Positions 9,013-45,367 of a stretch of 64,000 nucleotides of DNA are shown here, in pieces. Source of the DNA: Dictyostelium discoideum (lineage: Eukaryota). The DNA lies in assembly GCA_000004695.1 (NCBI GenBank), contig CM000153.2, forward strand, positions 4,384,001 through 4,448,000, written 5' to 3'. The position numbers were made by a program, and so were the translations under genes. Within the stretch, counting starts at the first letter, position 1. Each line of letters starts with the position of its first letter. The notes beneath the pieces are model-generated. The model was not told the DNA's origin, searched no databases, and saw only the letters and a list, made by a program, of their open reading frames with translations.

Positions 9013-9918
9013 ATGCAAACAAATATTACTTCAACAAAAATGTCAATTTTAGTAACTGGTGGAACAGGAGTTGTTGGTAGACAAGTTGTCAAATCATTAG
9101 AACTTAGAGAAAAAAATATTAATATTAGAGTTGGTGGTCGTGATCAAGACAAATGTAATCAATTGGGATTTGGTAAGAATTCAACTTTTACTAGATTCGA
9201 TTTCATGGATCCAACAACATGGGATAAATCATTAGAAGGTGTTGATAGAGTTTTCTTAATTGCCTTGCCAATGGATCCAACACCAGAGAAAAGCTTAGGA
9301 CCATTCATTGAGAAATGTAAAGAGAGAAAGTTAAAGAAAATCGTTGTCCTCTCTGTCATCGATGCTGAACGTGTACCATTGGTAAAGATTGAACAAATGG
9401 TTCAAGGTTCTGGATTGACATTTGTCATTTTGAGACCACCATTTTTCTCTGAGAATTTCTCTGAAGGTTTCATGAAACACGATATTGACCAAGGCACCAT
9501 TCGTGTACCAGTTGGTGAACATTCAGTCAATTGGATTTCAACTCACGACATTGGTGAATGTGCTTCCATAGTTCTCATGGACAGTAAATTCGATGGCAGA
9601 ACCATTGAAATCACTGGTCCAAAACCAATCAATTTCAAAGAACTCTCTGAAGTCGTCTCGAAGAATGTTGGTAAACAAATTAGATTTGAAGATATTAAAC
9701 CACAAGAATACAAGAAATGTCTCATGGATAGAGGTATCAGTGAACCATCTGCAAACTATCTCAATGAATTGTTCACTTCTGCTCGTGAAGATAAACTTTC
9801 AAAATGTACAAAAGGTGTTAATGAAATCACTGGTCATGATCCAAGATCCTTTGAACAATTTGCCAAAGAAACTTTCTCAAATACAAGTGGTAGTTGTACT
9901 TCTAAACCAGTTATGTAA
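9013..9918 (+). CDS. NmrA-like / NAD(P)-binding Rossmann-fold reductase family protein
   Basis: 301-aa single-exon ORF. The N-terminal ILVTGGTGVVGRQVVKSL is the classic GxxGxxG dinucleotide-binding motif of NmrA/atypical SDR proteins. Both flanks are AT-rich. Confidence 0.8.
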   Translation: MQTNITSTKMSILVTGGTGVVGRQVVKSLELREKNINIRVGGRDQDKCNQLGFGKNSTFTRFDFMDPTTWDKSLEGVDRVFLIALPMDPTPEKSLGPFIEKCKERKLKKIVVLSVIDAERVPLVKIEQMVQGSGLTFVILRPPFFSENFSEGFMKHDIDQGTIRVPVGEHSVNWISTHDIGECASIVLMDSKFDGRTIEITGPKPINFKELSEVVSKNVGKQIRFEDIKPQEYKKCLMDRGISEPSANYLNELFTSAREDKLSKCTKGVNEITGHDPRSFEQFAKETFSNTSGSCTSKPVM

Positions 9919-21481: not shown

Positions 21482-23497
21482 ATGGAAGATAAAGAAGATA
21501 GAGAAAAAAGAAGTGGTGATAGAGATAAAGATAGAGATAGAGATCGTGATAGAGATAGAGATCATTATAGTGGTAGTAGTAGTAGTAGTAGCAGTAGTAG
21601 TAGAAGAGATAGAGATAGAGATAGGGATAGAGACAGAGATAGGGATAGAGATAGGGATAGGGATCGTGGTGGTGGTGATCGTGATAGAGACAGAGATAGA
21701 GATAGAGATCGTGATAGAGACAGAGATAGAGATCGTGATAGAGACAGAGATAGAGATCGTAGTAGTGAAAGAAATAGAGGAGGAGGTGATTATTCAAGTA
21801 GAAAAAGAAGTAGATCTCCAAGTGCTCGTTCAAGCACAAGAAGTGATCCATTCACAACTACACCAACATCTAGAAAATCATCACTCTGGGACAGACAACC
21901 CGACCCAAATGAAGTCAACCAACAATCACCAACTCACCAACAACAACAACCACAACCACCACCACACCAACAACAACCACCACATCAACATCACCAACAA
22001 CATTACCAACAACAACAACAACAACAACAACAACAGGGAGGAGGAGGGTTCCAACAAGGAGGAGGATTCCAACAGGGTGGGGGAGGATTCCACCAAGGAG
22101 GATTCCAAAACAACAACAACAATAATAATAATAATAATTTTAATAATAATAATAATGGCGGATTTAACCCAATGTTTCAACAGAATCAAATGTTTATGCA
22201 GCAACAGCAATTACAACAACAGCAACAATTACAACAACAGCAGCAACAAAATAATCAAGAGACACCACAAAAAAAACAAAGTAGAAGAATTTATGTTGGT
22301 AATATTCCACCAGGTATATCAGATTCAGAGTTGATGGAATTTTTTAATGCAGCTGTATTGGCAGCAAATTTAAATACAAAACCTGGACCACCAGTGGTGT
22401 TTTGTCAAATTAACGCACCTAAATGCTTTGCATTTATAGAGTTTAGGTCACCAGAGGAGGCGACAAATGCAATGAGATTCGATGGTATTTCATTAAAGAA
22501 TTTCACATTGAAAATTCGTAGACCAAAGGATTATCAATCGACATCTGATAACACTGGTGGCAATGCGTCATTGTTACCATCGATTGTGCCAACCAATGTA
22601 CCAGATAGTGAGAATAAAATCTATGTCGGTGGTTTACCATCGAATTTATCAGAGGAACAAGTTAAATCATTATTATCAGCATATGGTAAACTAAAAGCAT
22701 TCAATTTGGTAAAGGATACCAATACTGGTGTAAGTAAAGGTTTTGCATTTTGTGAATATCAAGATTCTGAAGTAACTGATGTGGCATGTTCAAAATTGAA
22801 TGGTATACCATTAGCTGATAAAACATTGGTTGTACAACGTGCAAGTATTGGTTCAAAACCACCTGGAGACGCATCTAAAGGTGGTGATGTTACACAACAA
22901 CAGCATCAACAACAACAGCAACAACAATCAACAAGCAATGGTAGTGGTTCAATGGTTTTACCCCATTTAACTGGTGCGAATAGTAGTTTAATGGAGGATC
23001 AAGGTGGTGGTGGTGATAGTTTACCAAATGGCGTTGATCCAACAATTGCTGGATTATTAAATTTAAATATACCGGTTGCTCAAACATTAAGTATAATAAG
23101 AACAAATCTTTTAAATAGTAGTGTAAGTGGTGGTGGTGGTACAACAAATGGTACGATTACACCTGACAACAATACGAAACCATCTTGTGTCATTCAAATT
23201 TTAAACCTCGTCGATAGAGAGGACATTTTTGATGATAAAGAATATGATAATATATTAATCGATGTAAAAGAAGAATGTGAACAATTTGGTGAAGTGCAAT
23301 CAATTTGGTTACCTTTACCATCTAAAAATCCATTAGAAGTCACAAGAGTTTATGTTGAATTTTCTCAAGTAGAATTTGCTCAAAAAGCTTGTTTAGCCTT
23401 AGGTGGTAGAAAATATAATGGTAGAGTACTTTTCTCTGCATATTATCCTGAAGATTTATTTTTTAAAAATTCACAACAACAACAACAACAATCATAA
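21482..23497 (+). CDS. Splicing factor U2AF large subunit (U2AF65/U2AF2 homolog). The N-terminal arm is an (RD)n repeat rather than an RS domain.
   Basis: 671-aa single-exon ORF. RRM1 reads [24 protein letters not shown]...[38 protein letters not shown]. RRM2 reads [78 protein letters not shown]. The C-terminal UHM reads VIQILNLV...[15 protein letters not shown]...[28 protein letters not shown]. This aligns block for block with human U2AF65 (RRLYVGNIP..., [48 protein letters not shown]..., RKFANRVV). Confidence 0.9.
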   Translation: [671 protein letters not shown]

Positions 23498-25315: not shown

Positions 25316-26466
25316 ATGATCAGATCATTAAATTTTGCTTTAAGTGTGTAATAATAATTTTTTTTTTTATTTTTTTATTATTAAAAATTAAATTCACTAA
25401 TAAATTTTTTTTTTTTTTTTAAATAGGAAATTGTAATAAAAATATTTTAATTAATTCAAATAAAATAACAATTAATAATGGATTATTATTGAAAAAGAAT
25501 AATTTTTGTACACAATCAACAAGTGAAGTTAAAGTACCAACTGAATTAGTTGTACAATTAAGAAAAAAGACTCAATCACCAGTACAAGAATGTAAGAAAG
25601 CATTACAAGCTAGTAACAATGATATGGATGGTGCAATCAAATGGTTATTAGAAAAGGGTAAAGCCACTGCTGAGAAATTAAAGAGTAGAGTATCAGCAGA
25701 GGGTATCATTTCAGTATTGGTCGATAGTGGTAGTGGAAAAGCTGTCATTTTAGAAATGAATAGTGAAACTGATTTCGTATCACGTGGTGACATTTTCCGT
25801 AATTTAGCAAGAGACATCTCCAAAGCAACTTTATCAAACCCAATCAGTGGTGGAAAGTTAGCAGAGAATGGAATCTTGGAACTTGACCCAACCCAAGTTG
25901 AAAACATTTACCCAATTAAAATTAACATCACCAATGAGGATGGCGTCGCTGAAGAAATGACTATCAAAGACTCAATAGTTCGTATTGTTAGTAAATTACG
26001 TGAGAATATTGTAATTCGTCGTGCATCTTTCATTCAACCATTAAATAATAATAATAATAATAGTAAATCATATATTTCATCATATGCACATGACTCAACA
26101 TCAGAAAAGAAAGATGTTGGTCGTTTAGGTTCAATCGTTCAATTTGAATATCAAGGTGATTGTAATAATATGAATTCTCTTAAAGAGTTTGCCAATCAAT
26201 TAGCAATTCACATTGTTAGTAATTCACCAAGTGTAGTTACAGTCAATGATATTCCAAGTTCAGTTTTAGAGGAATGTAAAAATAATAACAAAAATCCAGA
26301 ATCACTCTATGATGATATGGTACTCTATGAACAATCTTACATGTATTCTCCAGATCATTCCGTAAAACAATATCTTGAAATTCTCTCTGAAAAATTAGGT
26401 ATTAAAAATTTATCTGTCAAAACTTTTAGACGTTATGCAATTGGTGAAACTGCCGAACGTGTTTAA
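25316..26466 (+). CDS. Elongation factor Ts, mitochondrial (EF-Ts/TSFM). The main exon is ~25427 or 25498..26466, with a short 5' exon from ATG 25316.
   Basis: The main ORF encodes ...TELVVQLRKKTQSPVQECKKALQASNNDMDGAIKWLLEKGKATAEKLKSRVSAEGIISVLVDSGSGKAVILEMNSETDFVSRGDIFRNLARDIS.... This is the EF-Ts UBA-like N-domain plus the dimerisation core (E. coli: [20 protein letters not shown]...; NCQTDFVAK). The ORF-track start is TTG, so a true ATG exon must lie upstream. The candidate is ATG 25316 (MIRSLNFAL..). Two splice solutions are both non-canonical: donor GTGTGT at 25344 to acceptor AAATAG ending at 25426, or donor GTGTAA at 25346 to acceptor AAAAAG ending at 25497. Confidence 0.75.
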
Positions 26467-30330: not shown

Positions 30331-33300
30331 TTATTTTTGAGATGTTGAATTTTGTTGTTGTTGTTTTTGTTGTTGTTTTTGTTGTTGTTGTTGTTGTGAA
30401 TTATTTGTTGTTGTTGTTGTTGTTGAAAGTGAAGTAAAACTATTTGGATTAATTGTAACACTTTTGGTACAATTATCAGTTTTATAAATACCAACTAAAC
30501 GATCAGCTAATTCAAACATATAATTTCTTAAAGAGATAATAATGAATTGAGCATTTTTAGTTCTTTCTTTAATATAATTAGCAATGATTGAAACATTTTT
30601 AAAATCTAAAGCTGCATCAATTTCATCCATTACATAGAGAGCATTTGGTTTATAATGATGAAGTGCAAATACTAAAGCTAAAGAAGATAAAGTTTTCTCA
30701 CCACCAGAAAGATTTGAAATATTTTTCCAACTCTTTTTTGGAGGTCTAACACTGAAAGAGATACCTTCTTGGAATGGATCTTCACGATCGATGATTTCCA
30801 ATTCAGCATCACCACCCAATGTAATCATTTGATAAATTTCTTTTAGTTTCATTGTGATAATTGTAAAGCCAGCCATGAATTCATCCAAACGATTCTTTCT
30901 AAGACTTTCATATCTTTTGGATAGATTGTCACGTTCTTTTTCAATTTCATCAAATTCCGCCTTTCTACTATGATATTCTTGTTCCTTCTTTTGGAAATCT
31001 TTAACCACTTCAATGTTTACATTGTTTTCTTTTGAAATTTTTTGAATTTGAGTGGTGAGTTCATGAATTTTGGCAATTAGATTTTGTTGTTCAGTGGCCT
31101 CCATATATTGTTCAATCTCCTCGGGTGTTAAGATTGCAGAGACTTGATTGATGAGTGATTCATCGACATAGTCTTTATAGATTTTTGCTTTCTTTGCTTG
31201 GTTTGCAAATTTACTTAAACAATCGGCGATCTCTGCTTGTTTCTCATTGATAAGGGTTTTAAATTCTTCGATTTGAGTCTCCAATTTACTATTGCTAACT
31301 TTAATCTTTTCAATTACTTTTTTGGCTTTTTCATGTTCTTTTCTAATTTCTTTGGTTTCTTCTTCCTTTTCACGAAGTTGTTCAGAGACAGCTTCCATTG
31401 CTTCAGTGGCTTTAAGATTCTCTTTCTCCAATGATTTATATTTCTCTAGAATCTCTGCTAATGCTGCTTCATTCTCATCCTTTTCTTTGGTATTTTCATT
31501 CAATATTTTAATTGATTTTTCCATTGATTTTGCTAATGATTTGATTTGAACATTTGCTTTGGTAGTGTTGGTTTGGTTTGAATCAATTCTAGATTGAAGT
31601 GATTCAACTTTATTCTTTTGCATTTTCAATTGTGGACCACCAACATTTAAGATACTGTTTTGAATTTCTTGAACTTCAGATTCTAATTTATTAACTTTCT
31701 CTTGAACCTTATCTAAAGATTTTTGATCAACAATCAATGATTCTTTGATGGAATCGATTTGTTCCTTCTTTTCAGTGGATAACTTTGCTTTATTCTTTAG
31801 TTGAGGAATAACTTTGGTTAACTCTTCACATTTTGTAATGGCTGCTTTAATATCCATATCCATCTTTGGCAATTCTAATTCTAATTCAGAACGACGATTT
31901 TGTGCTTGTTGAATTTGGTTTTCAATCTCTACCAACTCATCCCTACATTGACGAAGATCACTATCCAATTGAGAAAGATTGTCTTGTAACTCTATCAATT
32001 TCTTTTTATCTTCTTTTGGATCACCCTTTAATTTGGAGTTCATTGCACCAACTCTTGGTTTGAGACCACCACCACTCATTGCACCACTAGTGTCAATGAG
32101 TGAACCATCCAAAGTTACAACACGATGTCTTTTTGCTCCATAGGCTATTTTGGTTGCTTCATCCAAAGTATCAGCAACCAAAGTATGACCAACTGCAGTG
32201 AAAAAGGCGGTTGCATACTTTTTTTCATCTTTCATCTTTATTAAATCAAATAGACGTGGTGTATTATTTGGTGTTTGAACTGGACCAAGATTTTGACGTT
32301 GATATTCTAAATTCTCCAAGATCATAAATGTAGCTCTACCTAAATTCTCCTTACGTAATAGTTCAACACATGCTTCGGCGGCTGCTGTTGTCTCTACAAT
32401 GATATTATCCATTTGTGAGAAGGCAGCAGTAGAGATGGCAACATCATACTTTTGATCGATTGCACCCAAATCACCCAATCTACCATGAATACCACTAATT
32501 TGACCACTTTCTTTAATCTTTAATAAACGATCCAATATAGTGTTTCTTGAACTATTTTCAGAGAGATTGGTCTTAATTTGTTCCAATTGTCTCTTGGCAT
32601 CCATTGTATTTCTATAGAGATTCTCTTCGGTGACTTTACCACTTGCAAGTCTTTTCTCAAGATCCACTATAATTGCTTTAACCGATTCCAACTCCTTCTT
32701 TGATTTGGTGATATTATTCTTACGAGTGGATGAAATGGTTTTGGCATCCTCTAGTGCTTTGATTGCATCATCTAAATTTTGAGTTGCACCATTGAAATCT
32801 TTAGAGAGTACAGCCAATTCAGAGGTTTTCAAATCAACTACTGCCTTTGCTTCACTATGCTTTTTACTCCATGGAAGTAATTGTTTTTGTTTTTCCTCCA
32901 TTTCACGTTGTAATTCTGTAACTTCACCCTTGAGTGAATTTAACATTGATTCTAATTTCTTCTCTTCAACAATCAATTCCTTTGGTAGTTCGACATACTC
33001 TTTCTCGAATCTAACTATATCTTGTTTATGAATGATAGTTGATCTTTCAAATTCCGCTTGTTTCTTTGTTTCCTCTTCGATGACACTATTGTTTTTTTTG
33101 ACTTTAGTTTTCAAATGTTTAGTTTCTTCCTTATATTTAACACCTTTCTTTTCAGTGGTTAAGAGTTCATTCTTACATTTTGCCATTTGTTTATTCAATT
33201 CATCCAATTGTTTATTCTGTTGTTTAAGATTCTTTTCAAATTCCAATAGTTTATCATTCGATGCTTTTTGAGTGACCAACTCTTGTTCCAATTGTTTCTC

Positions 33301-33683
33301 AACCATCTCTTGTTTGGCTGCAATTTCATTCTTTTCACGCTCTGGTTTGCTTCTACCAATTTGATAGTGTATCGATTTACAATGAATTAACTTTAACTCT
33401 TTATCAATGTACTCCAATGCATTATCACGTTCTTGTTGAAGCGCATCTTTTTCTTTTTCAACCACTTTCATACGATTATTTGATGAAGTTCTTTTATCAC
33501 CAATATCTTCTATCAATTTACTAGTTGCTTCAATATCTGGTAAATACTTTTTACTACCAATAATATCTTCTAAATATTCTAATAAACCTTCTTCACCTGG
33601 ATGTACACCTTTTGGTTTCATCATTGCAATTTGTTCAACTTCACCCTATTTTTTAAAAAATTAATAATTATTAATTATTATTA

Positions 33684-35065: not shown

Positions 35066-35345
35066 TTAATTAACTCCATTAATTGAAGTATGAAATTGAT
35101 ACCACATATAGTTTTCATTATTATTATTACTATTATTACTATTATCATCATTATTACTATTAGTATTATTTTCATTGTTAATATGATCACTATTTTTGGA
35201 AATTGATTTTAATGAAATTTCAGTTATTTTAAAATCAAATTTATCATTTATATTTGAATTTGTAAAGTTGAAAACGGTTATTTTTGTAGATTTTTTTATT
35301 TTTAATTGGAAATCTTGTTGTGGAATAAAAAGTTGATCTCTACTA

Positions 35346-35404
<59 letters not shown>

Positions 35405-35571
35405 AATATTATTTAAACAATCAGTAATGTTATTTATTTTTTTATATATACAAATATTAGTTTTTAAAGGTCTTTGTAAAACTGAAAATGAATCTGGACT
35501 TTCAATAACTAATTTCATCATTATTTCTCTTAGTTTATTTCTATTTTCATCATGTTGAAAACCATTATTAC

Positions 35572-35613
<42 letters not shown>

Positions 35614-36031
35614 TTTTATAATCATTATATGAACCAAAATAAAATATATAAACTTCTTTTAAATTAAAAATTGAGGAACCTAATAAAACTGATACTACAA
35701 TTGGTAATTCTTCATCTTGATCTAGACAATTGAAATAAATTTCATCGATTTCTAAAAACAGTGATATTAAACTTTCTATAAATTTTTTTTTTTTAAAAGG
35801 AATTTTAATTTTATTATTATTATTATAATTATTATTATTATAATTATTATTATTATTATTTATATTTTTAAATTCTGATAATAATTGGTTGACTGGTATT
35901 GAACATTGATTCCTTGAATATAAAATATATTTTATTAATTCAATATTTAAATTTTTTATTAACTCAATATATTCCAAATTTAGTATATCACCAAATTCAA
36001 TGATTATCGGCTCATTGACTTTTTTATTCAT
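35066..36031 (-). CDS. N-rich low-complexity protein of unknown function, immediately upstream of SMC4 on the same strand
   Basis: 321-aa ORF starting MNKKVNEPIIIEFGDILNLEYIELIKNL.... It contains several polyN tracts of 15-25 residues. There are non-repetitive islands (KLREIMMKLVIESPDSFSVLQRPLKTNICIYKK). AT-rich non-coding DNA lies upstream. Confidence 0.5.
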
Positions 36032-36446
36032 TTTTTCAATAATTGAAATTAAAAAAAAAATAAATCAAATTAAATTTTACTTTCAAAATTTGGCGCTTTT
36101 TTTTTTTTTTTTCATAAAAAAATTAAAAATTAAAAAAAAAAATTAAAAAAAAATCCCTCCAAAAAATTCACGTAAAAATTTGGTTGAAAAATTCATGTGG
36201 AAATTTGGTTGAACCAAAGCTAACAACCAACCAAAACAAAATTTAATTTTAATTTTAATTTTAATTTTATTTTTAATATTAAAAAGGTAGTAATAATATT
36301 TTTAAATAATAAACAAATAAACAAATAAACAAATAAACAAATAAACAAACAAATAAATAAATAAATTAATAAATAAATTAATAAATAAATAAATTAATAA
36401 ATAAATAAATAAATAATATTTGTAAATAAATAAATAAAACAAAAAC

Positions 36447-37068
36447 ATGACGCTAAGGCTAGATACATCGCTAAAAAGGGGAGCTAGTAGGAATATACCA
36501 CCAATACCTACATTTAGTTCAGTATCGAATGAAAATTTATCCTCATCACCATATACTAGTAGTTCATACTACTCCTCAAATTGTGAAAGTTTAGATAGTA
36601 TTGGTGATATATCAATAGATTCTTCAGTTTATAGTTCTAGTGAAATTGAATTTGTTGGAAATGGTGATAAAAAAAAAAACTTTATTAATAACAATAATAA
36701 TAATAATGGTAATAAATATGATTTTTCCAATTTATTAGAAACTCCAAAATTAAAATTTTCACCATCAACTGGAAGAACCAAAAATAATAATAATAATAAT
36801 AATAATAATATTAATAATAATAATTATAAAAAGAATGATAACCAAAAGAAAAATTTTAAATATATAGAAGATAATGAAAGTGATTACCTTGATGATGAAA
36901 ATGATGAGGAAAATGTTGATATTGATCTATCGATTTTAAATGTAAATTTTAAAATTATAAATGAAAACAATAGCCAAAATAATAATAATAATAAATATCA
37001 AATTAATAATAATATGCAAAAAACGGGTGGTAGGAATGGTAGTGTTTTCTTTGTCAATAATAACAACA

Positions 37069-37159
<91 letters not shown>

Positions 37160-38136
37160 CAATAGTAATAATAAAAATAATTTTAAAAATAACAATACTA
37201 GTTACACTCACAATAGTAATAAAAATAATAATGAAAATAAGAATACATTCGCAATTAAACAACAACTTGTATCAACACCTAAAAATAAATTAAGTCAAAC
37301 CTATAGAGAAAAAGTAATATTAGAACATTTAAATATTTTAATTGAATCCAATAAAGCATGTAATTTTCCGAAATTAATTAATTGGTATAAAGCAGCACCT
37401 ACTTCAAATCTTAGTAATGTAAATAATAATAATAGTAATAATAATAATAATAATAGTAATAATAATATCACCAATTCTAGATATGGTAGTAATTATGAAG
37501 ATATTTATGATGATAATTATTATGATGAAGTTGATGATTATGATAGTGGTAAAGAAGAGGAAGAATCAACAAAAACAATTACAAAAACAATTACAACGAC
37601 AACAGCATCAATAAAACCAAATATTCAATATATGCATTTAATATTAGAGTATGCAAATATGGGTACTCTTAAAGAGTATGGAAAAGATAATAATTTTGAA
37701 TTCACAATTTCACAAATGAAATCATTACTATTTCAAGTTATTTATTCTTTAGCAATCTCTCAAAAAGAGTTTGAATTTGTTCATAATGATTTACATTTTG
37801 GTAATGTCCTATTAACCTCATTCCCCGTCGATAAGAAATATATAGTTTATCAAGATAAATTGGATAATGGTGAATTTAACAATTGGATAGTTGGTGGTGA
37901 TTTCATTGTGAAAATATCGGATTTTGGTCTAAGTAGAATAAAACTTCCTTCAAATGAAATCATTTACAATCAAAGGAATGATAGATCTAAAGAGTTTTGT
38001 TTCTATTCTGATTTATACAGTTTCAGTAGTCTATTAAATAAAATTAAAATTAAAGAATCACCATCATCATCATCAACTACTTCTACATCCACTTCTCAAG
38101 TTCTAATCAAATCTGATAGTGATTCATCATCATCAG

Positions 38137-38190
<54 letters not shown>

Positions 38191-39342
38191 TGCCAAAATC
38201 TAAAAATAAATCAAATAGGTCTAAAGACAATCAATCAAAATTAGATCCTGAAAAAAGGTTACTCACAAAGTTAAAGAAATCAATGAAAGATTTACCACCC
38301 TATAAATTATTGGATCATCCTTTCTTTGATTCATTAAAAGTTTGTCCAAATGATTGTTTACCTTTAAATTCAATTAGAATTTCAACCAATGGTATAGTTC
38401 CTAAAGAATTCCCAAAACCTCTATCACCTATTTTTGAAAAGAATAATATAATAAGTATACCATCATCACCAATATCAACTACCACTACTACTTTCCCCAC
38501 CACACCCACAATAAAGTCAACAACGAAAAAAATATCGAAAACAATAGTGATACCATCTTCACCAAGTTTAGCTTTACCACCAAATTTAAGTGTTAAATCT
38601 CCATTTGCACCACCAAGTAAAAAACAATTACAACAATATCAGCAACAACAAAAACAACAAACAATATCAATGTTTAAATATGATGATGAAGAAGAAAAGG
38701 AAGAAGAGGAAAAAGAAAAAGAAAAAGAAAAAGAAAAAGAAAAAGAAAAAGAAGAAGAAGGAGAAGAAGGAAATATACCAAAAGAAAAATTAATATTAAA
38801 AATGACACCAAAGCCATATATATTTATTCATCATTTCTCACCAAATTCACTTGGGCCTCTATCGCCACCTTCATCAACATCTTCCACACTGCTTGGAGCA
38901 TTATCACAAGAAAAGTTTGAAAAAAAACAAAGACAAATCCAAGATTCTGAAAAGGTCAACAAAAATGAGGAAGAAAATCAAACAAAAGATGATGCTGATA
39001 ACATTTCACCTCCTTTGCCTCATGCAATAAAGAAAAGTATTTACAATAATAAAAACAATCACCAAAAAATTTCAACTAATACAATCATTAAAACTCCAAT
39101 TAAAGCTCCAATTAAAACAATAACTCAAATACCAACCGAGACACCAAATAAAATACCAAATAAAACAATCTCTCAATCAAATCCGGTGATCATAAGAGAT
39201 GAAACACCTCAAAAAGGTATTCCTTTTGAAAAAAAGGTAGTTTCAACTCCATTGATATACAAAGAACGACCACATTTCGTATTTTTAAAAAAAGCAAAAC
39301 TTTCATCAAATAGCAACAACAAAGAAAATATAATCAACTTTC

Positions 39343-39427
<85 letters not shown>

Positions 39428-40112
39428 AGATTCATACAATGAAAAAGGAAATGCAACTTCTTATTGCAATGGCGATGATGATGACGATGACTTTAAAATT
39501 GATCACAAAGAGAACGTAGTTAGTGGTTTTTTAATAGAAAAAGATCATGAGTTTATTGGTGATAAAGAAAATAGTAAAGAGAAGCAAAAGGTCTCTAAAC
39601 GAGTTCAAGATAAAGCCTGGCAAGAACTCAATGCATTTCTTCGTAAAAATCCAACTCAAGGTGTTAGTAGAATAAAATCAACCGATTATCCAGCTTTAAG
39701 CGACCTTTTTCCCAAAAAAAAAAGATGTTCAGAAAATAATTTTGTATTTGAAAAAGAAAAAAAACAAGAAAAAGAAAACAAAGAAAAAGAAAACAAAGAA
39801 AAAGAAAAGAAACAATTAGAAAAACAAAAACAGTTGGAAAGAGAAAAATTGGAAAAAGATAGATTAGAAAAAGATAGATTAGAAAAAGAACAACAAGAAA
39901 AAGATTGTTTGGAAAGAGAGAAATTTTTGGAAAATGAGAGATTAGAAAAAGAACAAGAAAGAGAGAAATTGGAAAAAGAAATTAAAATACTCGTTGTTTC
40001 AAAAAAAAATCGTACAAACCCTTTACAAAAAGATTATGATCGCTATATAAAAAAAGTTGGTTCGTCTCTCACTGAAAAAAGAGCATCAAAACCTATGAAC
40101 GACAACATTTAA
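36447..40112 (+). CDS. Haspin-like atypical Ser/Thr protein kinase embedded in a 1221-aa low-complexity (N/S/K/E-rich) protein
   Basis: Single long ORF. The kinase core is GGRNGSVFFV (Gly loop), then polyN, then NTFAIKQQL (the VAIK Lys), then ...IQYMHLILEYANMGTLKEY, then ISQMKSLLFQVIYSLAISQKEFEFVHNDLHFGNVLL, then KYIVYQDKLDNGEFNNWIVGGDFIVKISDFGLSRIK. The HxDLHxGNVLL catalytic loop and the D(F/Y)(G/T)LSR segment with an inserted beta-hairpin before it are diagnostic for haspin (human: HRDLHWGNVLL ... SIIDYTLSRLE). C-terminal features are an S26 tract, a (KE)n stretch and an ELEKD coiled coil. Confidence 0.7.
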
Positions 40113-41234
40113 AAAAAATAAAATAAAAAAATAAAAATAAAATAAAAATAATATAAAATAATATAAAATAAAACACTGTAAAACAAAAAGATTGTTTAAA
40201 AAAAAAAAATAAAAAATAAAATAAAAAAAGATTTTATTTGTTTAAATAAAATGTTTTTACTATCAAAGAGTGCTTTTTCATTTAATGAATCAATGCCAAA
40301 AGGATTCAATATTACATTCCATATTTACCACAAGGTCCAAGAACTTTTAAAATTACAGCCTATAATGAATTCATACCACAAATTGATTCAGTTATTAGAT
40401 ATTCAGATTATTTCATTATCAATGGTAATACTTTGAGTATAATAGTTTTAAAAATAATAAAATAATAATGATAATAATAATTATAAATGTATAAATTAAA
40501 AATTGTATCAGAAAAGATTTAAATAGATCCTTTTAAAAATAATATTGAACGAATAAACAAAAATATATTTCATTTGTAATTTTTATCACCATTATTATTA
40601 TTATTTTTATTTTTTCAATTTTTTACCAATACCTCTCTTTTCTTTTTTGAATAAATTATAGTATTATTCCGAATGCAGGGAATTTATTTAATGGGAATGG
40701 AAAATTTCCTTTTTCAGATTTATTGTGACTATTAGTTGTAATTAATGATAATCAATTAGCAGGTGAATTGAATGATGATTGGTGTAAGGTTGATTTTAAT
40801 ATTAGAAATAATTATATTGGTGGTAAAGCACAATCATGTGTAGTTTGTCATTACCTTTTATATAATAATAGATATATTTTAGAAGGTAATAGATTCACAA
40901 TCCAATTTGGAAGATTGTACAACTATTGAACTTAGTTTATCATATGATAATGATAATGACACTATGTTTTTGTATGGTAGATATCTAGGTTTTCAAGTTA
41001 GTTAATTCTAATTTAATAAAAAATTTGGGGTTTCAAATATAATATCAAAAATAAATTAAAAATTGGGTTGGTGGATATTTCTCATAAATTCAAAGAATAA
41101 AATTCAAACTAGTTTCAAAATAAAAAATTAAAAAAAAAACATTTTTTCATTTTTTTTTTTTTTTTTTTTTATTCATATCAAATTATATATATAAATACAT
41201 ACACTCCAAATAATAATAAATAAACAATAAAAAA

Positions 41235-42170
41235 ATGGATGATAAATTATTTTTTAAAGTATTTAGGAATATTTATTTGCAAAAAGAGATATTTAAACAT
41301 TTAGAATATTATAGGTTGGTTTTTTTATTTAGTTCAACATCAAGATTTAAATTTAATGCCATTACAATTAGTAATTATGAATATAGAGAATATTTATCAA
41401 GTATTCATATAGATAAAAAGAGTAATAATATTGGAATAAACCCATTGACAGCGTTGGAAGATATTAACCATTCAACAGGTTGTTTTATGAAACCATTACC
41501 AGTAAGTGTATCGAACAATATCATACAACCAGGACAAATACCAGAATCGGTTGAAAAGTTAACAGTTCATTCAACTGATATTATTTGTGTTGGTTCATTC
41601 TCTCAAGTAATTTCAAACACATCACCTGATAAAAACTATAATTGTAATATTAAATCAATAAATTTCACAATTCAATGTATATTCCCAAATGGTATAATCT
41701 ATGGACTAATTCCAGAATCTGTCAAAAACTTAGAGATTCATAGTAAAATAATAAATCAAAAACCAATATTCATACCAAACTCTGTGGAGAAATTATCATT
41801 CTATTGGTTCAATCAACCGATTTTACCCTCACAAATACCAGATTCTGTAAAACATTTATCATTAGGTGTTATATTTAATCAAAACCTATCAATTGATACT
41901 TTTGGTGACAATTCATTATTGGAATCAATAGAGTTTGGTTATGATTTTAATAAACCAATTCAGTTTGGTGTTTTATCTAAATTAAAAAATTTAAAAACTA
42001 TTAAATTTGGTATATCTTTCAATCAACCAATTATACCATTTTCAATACCAGAACAAGTAACTTCAATCATTTTTAGAGGAGAATATATTATTCCTTTTCC
42101 TCCAAATTCAATACCAAAATCTGTAAAACTTATTCATAATCAAGCATCATTACAATTATCATCAAAATAA
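41235..42170 (+). CDS. FNIP-repeat protein (a Dictyostelium-specific repeat family)
   Basis: 311-aa ORF with ~22-residue repeats ending in FNQPI/FNKPI/FNQNL (e.g. FYWFNQPILPSQIPDSVKHLSLGVIFNQNLS; FGYDFNKPIQFGVLSKLKNLKTIKFGISFNQPIIPFSIPEQV). The N-terminus MDDKLFFKVFRNIYLQKEIFKHLEY resembles the F-box-like head common in this family. Confidence 0.7.
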   Translation: MDDKLFFKVFRNIYLQKEIFKHLEYYRLVFLFSSTSRFKFNAITISNYEYREYLSSIHIDKKSNNIGINPLTALEDINHSTGCFMKPLPVSVSNNIIQPGQIPESVEKLTVHSTDIICVGSFSQVISNTSPDKNYNCNIKSINFTIQCIFPNGIIYGLIPESVKNLEIHSKIINQKPIFIPNSVEKLSFYWFNQPILPSQIPDSVKHLSLGVIFNQNLSIDTFGDNSLLESIEFGYDFNKPIQFGVLSKLKNLKTIKFGISFNQPIIPFSIPEQVTSIIFRGEYIIPFPPNSIPKSVKLIHNQASLQLSSK

Positions 42171-42367: not shown

Positions 42368-44351
42368 TTAAGTATAAGTTGGATCAACATAAGAATAAAG
42401 AATTGCATCTTTGATACCATGTAACATTTGAATATTTGAATAAGAAGATTCAGAGAAAATGTTATTATAGATTTTAGTGATGAATAAAGCTTCTTGGAAA
42501 GGAGATAAAATGAAACCAAGTTTTTCATAAGTTTGAATGAGAGTTTCATTTTCATGGTCAATATTTTCTTTTAATTTATCTAATAAACCACTAAGTTGTA
42601 CAAGATGTGATTGAACTGGACTACTGATATTATTTGAGATATCGACATCGGTACTGATGGTGGTGGTAGTGGTAGTGGTGGTAGAAGTAGAGGTGGTAGT
42701 TGTGGTGGTTGAAGTAGAGGCTGCGGTTTTCTTTGATTTGGTATTACCACCATTATTAACGGTACCATTGAATACTTTACTATGGTAGTATTCTCTGATC
42801 TCTCTGTTGAGATGAGTTCTTTCTTTGATAATCTTTTTATGTCTAAGATTACTTTCTTGTCTGAGTTGTCTAACACGATTCTCTTGTTCAGGATTAATAT
42901 TTGCTTCGTTGCAAAAGTTTGACCACCATTTGGTTGGTTCCAATTGTTCATAAGGTGATGGCATATCACCAATGGGTGAACTATTTGGATCAGAATGTTG
43001 TTTCTCTGATGGATCTTCAAATGGACAAGATTGAGCAGGCGAGATTTCACCATCCAATAATGCAAGTTTGGCTTGAGTACATGGATTAACGATTTGTTTA
43101 ATTTGGTTGATGTAAAGATCTTGACGATTTTTCAAAGTGCTGTAGAATTGTTTCAAAGTTGTGGTTAAGTCATCTTGAGTGGTGATACTCATATCAACTT
43201 GTAATCTATCGACCAATACACTAATATCAGGTTCAGTTTCAACAACTGGAGTACTTGGATCAGCGCTACCATCTTGTTGTTGTTGATCGAATTGATCAAA
43301 GTCATCCTCATCTTCATCCTCACTACCGGTACAACCTGGAATATCGGATTTGTTTGGTAATTGACCACCACTCTTGAGAATATTATTTTCATGAAGTAAT
43401 TTTTTCAATATTTTTTTGGAATCATAAAGTTCTTTCTTTAATCTTTCATTCTCTTGAACGATATCATCCAATCTATCCTCGACTTCATTGACATATTGTT
43501 TCTTTCTTTGTCTGTAATTTCTACTTGCTAAATTTTGACTTGCTCTTCTTCTTGTCTTTTGTTTCTCACTTAGATGAGCCAATGTCTCTTCAAAATCATG
43601 TGGTAAAATATATGATGAAATGGGTGATTTATTTGGTAATAAATCAACCTTTGGACAAGCAGCTGTGGTTGCTGGAATATTACTAGCCTTTGAAGTACTC
43701 TTTGTTGAACTATTTTGTGTCAATTGTTGAATCATTTGTTGAATTGGTTGAATTGGTGTTATTGATGAATTTATTGTTGGTTGTTTTTGTTGTGGTTGTT
43801 GTGGTGGTTGTGGTGATTGTGGTTGAATAGTAGTTGGTTGAATAATTGGTGGTCTTTGAACAGTTTTTTGTTGTGTTTGTTGTAGTTGTTGTGGTTGTTG
43901 TTGTGGTTGTTGTTGTGGTTGTTGTGGTGATTGTTGGGGTTGTAATTGTTGTGGTGATTGTTGTGGTGATTGTTGTGGTGATTGTGGTAGTTGTGGTGAT
44001 TGTGGTTGATGTAATTGTTGTTGTTGTTGTTGTTGGATTTGTTGTTGTAATAATAGTTGTTGTTGTTGTTGTTGTTGTAATATTTTTTGTTGTTGCTGAA
44101 TTATTTGTTGATTTTGATCATGGTTTGGAGATAATTGTTGTGGAATAACTTGGTCTTGTGAAGTTGTTGGTTGTAAATAAGAAGATGGTGTTATTGGTGA
44201 ATTGGTATTACTTCCATTGTAAGCATTAAAATTTCCTCCACTATTTTGTAAGTATGTAGTTTGAGGTACAGGTGAACTTGTATTACTTCCATTATTACTA
44301 TGTTGAGATATAAAATTTGAAGCCATATTACTATTATAATTTATATTATTA

Positions 44352-44391
<40 letters not shown>

Positions 44392-45216
44392 TATTATTGA
44401 TATTATTACTATTATTTAATTGAGGAATAGAAGAAGGTATTCCAGGTGATGAAGGGATTGATAACATTGTATTTGATTGAATTGGTGTTGAATAATAGGG
44501 TGATGCAGATTCTTGTATTGGTGATATTTGTTGTTGCTGTTGTTGTTGTTGTTGTTGTATTTGTTGTTGTTGTATTTGTTGTTGTTGTAATTGTTGTTGT
44601 TGTTGTTGTAATTGTTGTTGTTGTTGTAATTGTTGTTGTTGCAATTGTTGTTGTTGTTGTTGTTGTTGAATTCCATAAAAAGAACCACCATCAACATTTG
44701 TATTTAGAGCAGATAATAACATTAAATTTTTATCTTCAGAGAAAGGTAAGTAACCCATTGGCTCGTCACCAAACATTAAGACCATTTTTTGTTGTTGTTG
44801 TTGCTCCAACTGTAATTGTAAAGCTGCTTGTTGTTGTTGAATTTGTTGTTGCTGTTGTTGTAATAATTGTTGTTGTTGTTGTAATTGTTGTTGGGTGGTT
44901 TGTTGTAATAATTGTTGTTGTTGTTGTTGTTGATAACCATTTGTAACTTTAACAATATTATTCAATGCTGAGGATGTTGCCATTAACATATTGTTATTAA
45001 TATTACCATTATTATTATTATTGTTATTGTTATTATTATTATTTACATTATTTTGACTATTTATATTTACATTATTATTGTTGTTATTATTAATATTTAC
45101 ATTATTTCCATACATATCATATGATGAAGTTTGTTGTTGGTACCCATTATTGTTATTGTAATTATTGTTATTCCCATTATTATAAGATTGTTGGAAATTA
45201 TTATTATTATTATTAA

Positions 45217-45270
<54 letters not shown>

Positions 45271-45367
45271 TATTTAAATATTGTTGCTGTTGTGGTTGTT
45301 GTTGTGGAAAAAAATTATTATTCCCATTATAAATATAGTTTCCTTGTTGAGGAATACTTTGATACAT
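42368..45367 (-). CDS. bZIP (basic-leucine zipper) transcription factor with very long Q/N-rich activation regions
   Basis: 999-aa ORF. The basic region plus zipper reads EKQKTRRRASQNLASRNYRQRKKQYVNEVEDRLDDIVQENERLKKELYDSKKILKKLLHENNILK. It has the N-x7-R signature (NLASRNYRQRK) followed by heptad leucines. The rest is polyQ/polyN, the P/Q repeat SPQQSPQQ and a T16 tract. Confidence 0.75.

Follow-up and report, generated by a model that had tools for sequence, protein, structure and literature searches.

A haspin-family kinase gene of Dictyostelium discoideum with a polyasparagine expansion in a loop of its catalytic domain

A stretch of 64,000 nucleotides from the genome of Dictyostelium discoideum (assembly GCA_000004695.1, contig CM000153.2, forward-strand positions 4,384,001 to 4,448,000; hereafter the window) carries on its plus strand an open reading frame (ORF) at 36447..40112, which is complete and uninterrupted according to both the list of ORFs and direct reading, and which encodes 1221 amino acids (aa). 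We are highly confident that this ORF is the single haspin-family kinase gene of D. discoideum (DDB0231182) and that the polyasparagine (polyN) segment within its kinase domain is a translated loop expansion. The haspin assignment is supported by comparisons at the level of sequence, family profile and fold, all of which rank human haspin first, as the first-pass annotation of the ORF had proposed from its motifs; all motifs quoted there are present in the translation as described. The result is already known in its essentials: The gene was published in 2006 together with its haspin class and motifs, and the D. discoideum genome is well known for its polyN tracts. As a discovery it carries small weight, since the gene is catalogued and polyN is ordinary for this genome. 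The parts of the protein on which the following argument relies are listed here, all on the plus strand.

36993..38366, +: kinase domain (aa 183-640), broken by three low-complexity inserts
37026..37055, +: glycine-rich loop and β2 strand, GGRNGSVFFV (aa 194-203, read from the sequence), preceded by T193
37056..37247, +: insert 1, N-rich linker in the β2-β3 hairpin loop (aa 204-267, 64 aa), with a predicted local distance difference test score (pLDDT) <50 at aa 220-260
37248..37259, +: FAIK motif of β3 (aa 268-271) with the catalytic lysine K271; Ala and Lys invariant in family alignment A3
37308..37310, +: E288, candidate αC glutamate in a Y-R-E motif invariant in A3, within a modelled helix at aa 284-300
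37401..37622, +: insert 2, N/T/S/D-rich, between β4 (LINWYKA) and β5 (YMHLILEY) (aa 319-392, 74 aa), pLDDT <50 at aa 332-386
37782..37814, +: catalytic loop HNDLHFGNVLL (aa 446-456), aligning with haspin HRDLHWGNVLL
37836..37910, +: extra two-strand β hairpin, KYIVYQDKLDNGEFNNWIVGGDFIV (aa 464-488), between catalytic loop and DFG, aligning with the haspin segment
37914..37937, +: ISDFGLSR (aa 490-497), with which the activation segment starts; it aligns with haspin IIDYTLSR
38058..38240, +: insert 3, poly-Ser (aa 538-598, 57% Ser), between the helix at aa 521-530 and the C-terminal helices, pLDDT <50 at aa 543-591
38316..38420, +: last residues of the domain plus post-kinase tail, HPFFDSL...NSIRISTNGIVPKEFPKP (aa 624-658), kept across the dictyostelid orthologues
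36732..36776, +: N-terminal motif LLETPKLKFSPSTGR (aa 96-110), within an otherwise low-complexity region

The set of catalytic residues is complete (K271, E288, D448, N453 and D492) and conserved across the relatives. In the catalytic loop a histidine replaces the lysine of the canonical HRDLKPxN, and H446, D448, L449, H450 and N453 are invariant in the relatives; the earlier proposal that this loop is a variant of the haspin loop is borne out by the alignment and by the entry HNDLHFGN in the published kinome table. Separated from HNDLH by 41 residues, the activation segment begins with a canonical DFG (aa 492-494), in which D492 and G494 are invariant together with the following S496 and R497. 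The likeness of ISDFGLSR to haspin IIDYTLSR thus stands as far as the alignment is concerned, but the motif is a canonical DFG and not the DYT of haspin. Reading the sequence between D492 and the helix at aa 521-530, which we take as αF, we found neither an APE nor an SPE motif; this stretch, LSRIKLPSNEIIYNQRNDRSKEFCFYSDL, aligns with LSRLERDGIVVFCD of haspin. The lack of APE and the extra hairpin correspond to what has been described for the family: A divergent activation segment devoid of APE is characteristic of haspin, and a two-strand sheet added in the C-lobe is one of its three specific structural departures (PMC3513839). The H-x-D-L-H-x-G-N loop, the hairpin added before DFG and an LSRxxL activation segment lacking APE are the haspin-type features of the D. 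discoideum protein.

When the single protein was compared with all sequences of the PDB, the eight best matches were all human haspin (E values from 2.4e-4 to 2.2e-3), and in the alignment catalytic loop, hairpin and LSR motif were colinear. The family profile A3, which comprises dictyostelid and related sequences, found human haspin with an E value of 1e-13 (54.6 bits), while CDK6 as the best non-haspin match reached 3.7e-5 (26.5 bits). Judged by these sequence comparisons, the similarity to kinases is far beyond chance. Moreover, most of the strong database relatives of the ORF carry the Pfam domain Haspin_kinase (PF12330).

The comparison of folds is based on an AlphaFold2 (AF2) model that was built from a 31-sequence alignment and has a predicted template modelling score (pTM) of 0.71 and a pLDDT >90 in the core. 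It replaced an earlier run with 10 sequences, in which the mean pLDDT was 48 and the N-lobe remained unmodelled; Foldseek already favored haspin with that model, at template modelling (TM) scores of 0.2 to 0.3. With the 31-sequence model the top 12 Foldseek matches are all haspin (E values of 5e-10 to 8e-9), followed by the next match at 1.7e-6. The model places the β2 strand at aa 198-205 and β3 at aa 267-275, and it builds the extra hairpin from aa 465-471 and 477-483, two strands over which 10-residue blocks have a mean pLDDT of 90-94; the earlier claim of a haspin-like hairpin preceding the activation segment is thereby confirmed by both modelling and alignment. In haspin the N-lobe is enlarged and a helix inserted between β4 and β5 braces the Gly-rich loop (PMC3513839). 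This position is taken by the 74-aa low-complexity insert, in which the model contains just a helix of four residues (aa 320-323) and aa 332-386 have a pLDDT <50. At aa 531-593 it contains no helix and mostly the disordered poly-Ser insert, where relatives have about 10 residues; in the model, this helix-free segment would be consistent with an absence of αG.

A word-indexed homologue search yielded nine matches and no dictyostelids, for which reason exhaustive and profile searches were then used. The exhaustive search with the C-lobe returned 592 relatives, among which dictyostelid proteins are closest: KAF2076614.1 of Polysphondylium violaceum, KYR02348.1 of Tieghemostelium lacteum, XP_012748259.1 of Acytostelium subglobosum and EP01133_P006719 of Synstelium polycarpum. 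These orthologues are 48 to 61% identical to the ORF over the C-lobe and share with it HNDLH, D[FY]GLSR, an N-terminal LLxTPxxxFxPxTG motif and the post-kinase tail; in all four the Gly-rich loop is kept as G-[KR]-[NS]-G-x-[VI]-F-F-[VI] in the alignment. At 653 to 1042 aa they are shorter than the 1221 aa found here, and their inserts differ in length. Among 198 collected relatives HNDLH (126) and DFG (110) are the commonest forms and HRDLH occurs in 4, counts in which the clade of the ORF is over-represented, as the searches were seeded on its own protein. Because they are the majority forms among these relatives, HNDLH and DFG are clade traits and not signs of decay, and the prevalence of DFG in this self-seeded set suggests that DYT is not a family-wide requirement of haspins. 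Many of these relatives are proteins of 450 to 600 aa from marine and other metagenome contigs. S. polycarpum has in addition a second haspin-like paralogue (P0015, EP01133_P004030, 843 aa) with HGDLH and DFGLSR, whose predicted protein is prolonged by a chromodomain and a Tsr3-like region (Ribo_biogen_C/Fer4_RLI); this may be a merged gene model, and the haspin-chromodomain fusion would be of interest if true.

The identity of the gene is further supported by the kinome paper of Goldberg et al. (2006, PMC1420674): Residues 1-399 of the ORF are identical to those given for DDB0231182 in its Table S2, in which the protein is placed in group Other, family Haspin, with quality 'kd' and predicted activity 'a'. 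The motifs tabulated there are FAIK (as the VAIK motif), HNDLHFGN and DFG, and according to Table S3 the Dictyostelium kinome has a single haspin. By its own account, the protein sequences of that paper are mostly curated dictyBase models, and large inserts within kinase domains are mentioned (PMC1420674). That DDB0231182 is the gene DDB_G0286465 follows by inference from the single haspin of the kinome; a literature search for DDB_G0286465 returned no match. In a 2012 paper, in which it is termed a 'mutual best BLAST hit', Dictyostelium haspin is repressed by RblA and its expression has its maximum in late G2 (PMC3386910). Since the kinome counts a single haspin, we infer that this RblA-repressed haspin is the ORF studied here.

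The first 34 residues of the linker between β2 and FAIK read NNNNN-S-N28, that is 33 N and one S (aa 204-237, 37056..37157), and 48 of the 63 residues at aa 204-266 are N; the N tract of about 35 residues that had been noted as uninterrupted is therefore a near-pure run with one Ser in its first 34 positions. The coding sequence of the linker is a tandem repeat, (AAT)n, at 37056..37245, and at aa 204-262 AAT codons outnumber AAC codons by 43 to 3. A second polyN tract (aa 966-993, 39343..39427) is a perfect (AAC)28 (Tandem Repeats Finder unit ACA, 100% matches), and the two tracts, one AAT-based and the other AAC-based, are independent triplet expansions in one gene. Inserts 2 and 3 together add about 135 aa, and insert 3 includes a (TCA)22 repeat at 38124..38190. 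Two further ORFs of about 110 aa with poly-Ile run through the N tract (36936..37265 on the minus strand and 36961..37293 on the plus strand); they are antisense or out-of-frame readings of (AAT)n and not genes. Across the dictyostelids, the linker from β2 to [FY]A[IV]K has the following lengths.

D. discoideum, ORF 36447..40112: 64 aa, polyN
P. violaceum: 66 aa, N/S/D-rich, not polyN
A. subglobosum: 47 aa, polyQ
S. polycarpum: 13 aa
T. lacteum: 7 aa

As the lengths range from 7 to 66 aa, the site is a length-variable hairpin turn and not a strand. The other two sites vary as well: β4 and β5 are separated by 77 aa in the ORF, by between 16 and 38 aa in the orthologues from other dictyostelids and by 232 aa in one further relative, while the distance from DFG to HPFF is 126 aa here and 71 to 76 aa in relatives, the poly-Ser insert 3 being absent from all four dictyostelid orthologues. 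In the AF2 model most of each insert has a pLDDT <50. All three are confined to loops, as these comparisons show, and all three are homopolymer expansions typical of the D. discoideum genome. The polyN tract would thus be a translated (AAT)n expansion in the solvent-exposed β2-β3 turn that loops out in a disordered state, and it is probably dispensable for the fold because relatives have just 7 to 13 residues there; the β4-β5 insert and the poly-Ser insert after αF are likewise predicted to be looped out, disordered and dispensable. The earlier view that the tract lies inside the N-lobe sheet and must loop out accordingly holds for the looping out, which is predicted as disorder, and fails for the interruption of a strand, as the tract occupies the turn. 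The β2-β3, β4-β5 and post-αF loops of this kinase domain consequently seem to tolerate homopolymer inserts of 60 to 75 residues.

Outside the domain, composition analysis assigns 183 aa at the N-terminus and 571 aa at the C-terminus to low-complexity flanks, about 750 residues in total and fewer than the more than 800 estimated previously. Within the N-terminal flank the pattern L-x-TP-x-x-F-[SC]-P-x-[TS]-G of LLETPKLKFSPSTGR aligns in four other dictyostelid haspins, which makes it a candidate site for docking or for proline-directed phosphorylation. The recombinant core of aa ~190-520 suggested by the first-pass annotation would lose αF and the C-terminal helices; bounds of aa ~183-640 are useful for expressing the enzyme and for probing whether phosphorylation of histone H3 Thr3 by haspin serves to position the chromosomal passenger complex (CPC) of Dictyostelium.

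Several observations weigh against the identification of the ORF as haspin, and most directly the behavior of the Pfam profiles. The full-length protein is reported as PK_Tyr_Ser-Thr alone (32.7 bits), and on the insert-free core Pkinase (40.4 bits) leads Haspin_kinase (38.1 bits) and PK_Tyr_Ser-Thr (36.6 bits). Haspin_kinase nevertheless exceeds its cut-off of 25 bits on the core and is ahead on the C-lobe alone, at 41 bits; in alignment A2 (8 sequences) it matches all seven relatives and not the full-length ORF. We attribute its absence for the full-length protein to the low-complexity sequence, which masks the haspin signal. The profile check that had been proposed to settle the assignment is therefore split: Pfam alone is ambiguous and does not single out haspin, so that a best-match test does not decide between haspin and a eukaryotic protein kinase (ePK) of another family. 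Identity to human haspin is about 20%, and the D. discoideum protein has DFG for DYT and HND for HRD. The β4-β5 helix of human haspin is not evident, a 74-aa low-complexity insert standing in its place, and in the A3 profile alignment the family is about 30 residues shorter from αF to the last helix. Furthermore, the haspin crystal structures are part of the AlphaFold training data, so that the AF2 model does not constitute evidence independent of them. The exact 1221-aa sequence is absent from the protein collection, and the comparison with the published model covers aa 1-399. Finally, in the literature searched we found no H3 Thr3 phosphorylation experiment on the Dictyostelium enzyme, and a 2022 preprint describes the Dictyostelium haspin homologue as known and the dependence between CPC and haspin as unclear. 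A divergent canonical ePK, for example CMGC/CLK-like or TKL-like, in which the haspin-like motifs are convergent, would sit well with the Pkinase lead; given the family-profile and fold rankings described above, we regard it as very improbable.

Somewhat less remote, though still improbable, is a dead scaffold-type pseudokinase, its N-lobe disrupted by the polyN tract and the second insert and its HRD degraded to HND. The first Gly of GxGxxG is indeed a Thr (TGGRNG), HND stands in place of HRD and some 200 low-complexity residues lie inside the domain. However, the five catalytic residues are all present and invariant in the relatives, HNDLH as the form of 126 of the 198 collected relatives is a trait of the clade, the inserts map to loops whose surrounding core is modelled with a pLDDT >90, and the kinome paper gives the domain the quality 'kd' and predicts it to be active (PMC1420674). 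The polyN segment itself might not be protein at all and represent an unrecognized intron or a simple-repeat assembly artefact: With 190 bp of (AAT)n-like sequence it is near Dictyostelium introns in size and AT content. Yet the tract is in frame, has no stop and lies directly between β2 and β3. The usual Dictyostelium splice donor has the form GTA[AT]GT, and no such donor-like hexamer occurs in 36001..40500. Moreover, at the same site P. violaceum and A. subglobosum carry inserts that are likewise in frame, 66 and 47 aa long and of other composition, and the tract is included in the protein of the kinome paper (PMC1420674). We give this explanation hardly any credence; the hairpin would be normal with or without the tract, so that either outcome would be structurally tolerable. 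A reading that goes beyond a haspin with inert loops is that the HNDLH/DFG clade, with its trimmed C-lobe and no evident β4-β5 helix, differs functionally from the animal HRDLH/DYT haspins, for instance in substrate or regulation, and/or that the N- and S-rich loops are functional in phosphoregulation or self-association on chromatin; we consider it unlikely, if a little less so than the others.

For the preferred reading, an active haspin, the most likely role by homology is that of a mitotic kinase whose phosphorylation of histone H3 Thr3 would position the Aurora/INCENP complex at centromeres. The protein would accordingly be a constitutively folded mitotic Ser/Thr kinase acting on H3 Thr3, as expected from its family, and such a role agrees with the expression reported for late G2 under Rb/E2F control. 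A match to the E2F consensus lies in the 415-bp divergent intergenic region upstream of the gene.

36089..36096, +: TTTGGCGC, a TTTSSCGC match some 350 bp upstream of the start codon of haspin

It is the sole TTTSSCGC match in the window, where 0.37 are expected and 29 of 100 shuffles contain at least one; in view of the reported repression by RblA it may be an E2F site of the haspin gene, to which it is loosely tied. The same promoter region harbors a 25-bp direct repeat in 2.1 copies (AAAAATTCACGTAAAAATTTGGTTG, 36162..36213), which could be a regulatory element, followed by a long (TAAA)n at 36303..36438. The divergent neighbor on this region is an ORF at 35066..36031 on the minus strand (321 aa) with several polyN tracts and no Pfam match. 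The window as a whole has about 20% GC and is rich in homopolymer-coding repeats, and these tracts, like the FNIP repeats listed below, fit a nuclear locus of Dictyostelium; a transfer RNA scan of its 64 kb found none, and Pfam identifies the following domains.

30331..33624, -: SMC hinge and SMC_N of an ATPase of chromosome maintenance, encoded some 3 kb upstream of haspin
41235..42170, +: FNIP repeats
42368..45367, -: bZIP
21482..23497, +: two RRMs
25489..26466, +: mitochondrial-type EF-Ts
9013..9918, +: NmrA-like domain

Among known systems, human haspin (GSG2; 2VUW, 2WB8 and 3DLZ) is the best match of the D. discoideum protein in both sequence and fold. The two have in common the H-x-D-L-H-x-G-N-V-L-L loop, the 25-residue two-strand hairpin before D-x-x and the subsequent L-S-R, the lack of APE, and a divergent low-complexity N-terminal region. 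They differ in that the D. discoideum enzyme contains three disordered inserts within the domain, which human haspin does not have, and continues into a K/E/N-rich C-terminal extension of about 570 aa, whereas human haspin stops at the kinase domain. With the polyN and polyQ tracts of Dictyostelium in general, the tract described here shares the AAT triplet repeat translated as Asn; what is particular to it is its location in a surface hairpin loop of a catalytic domain.

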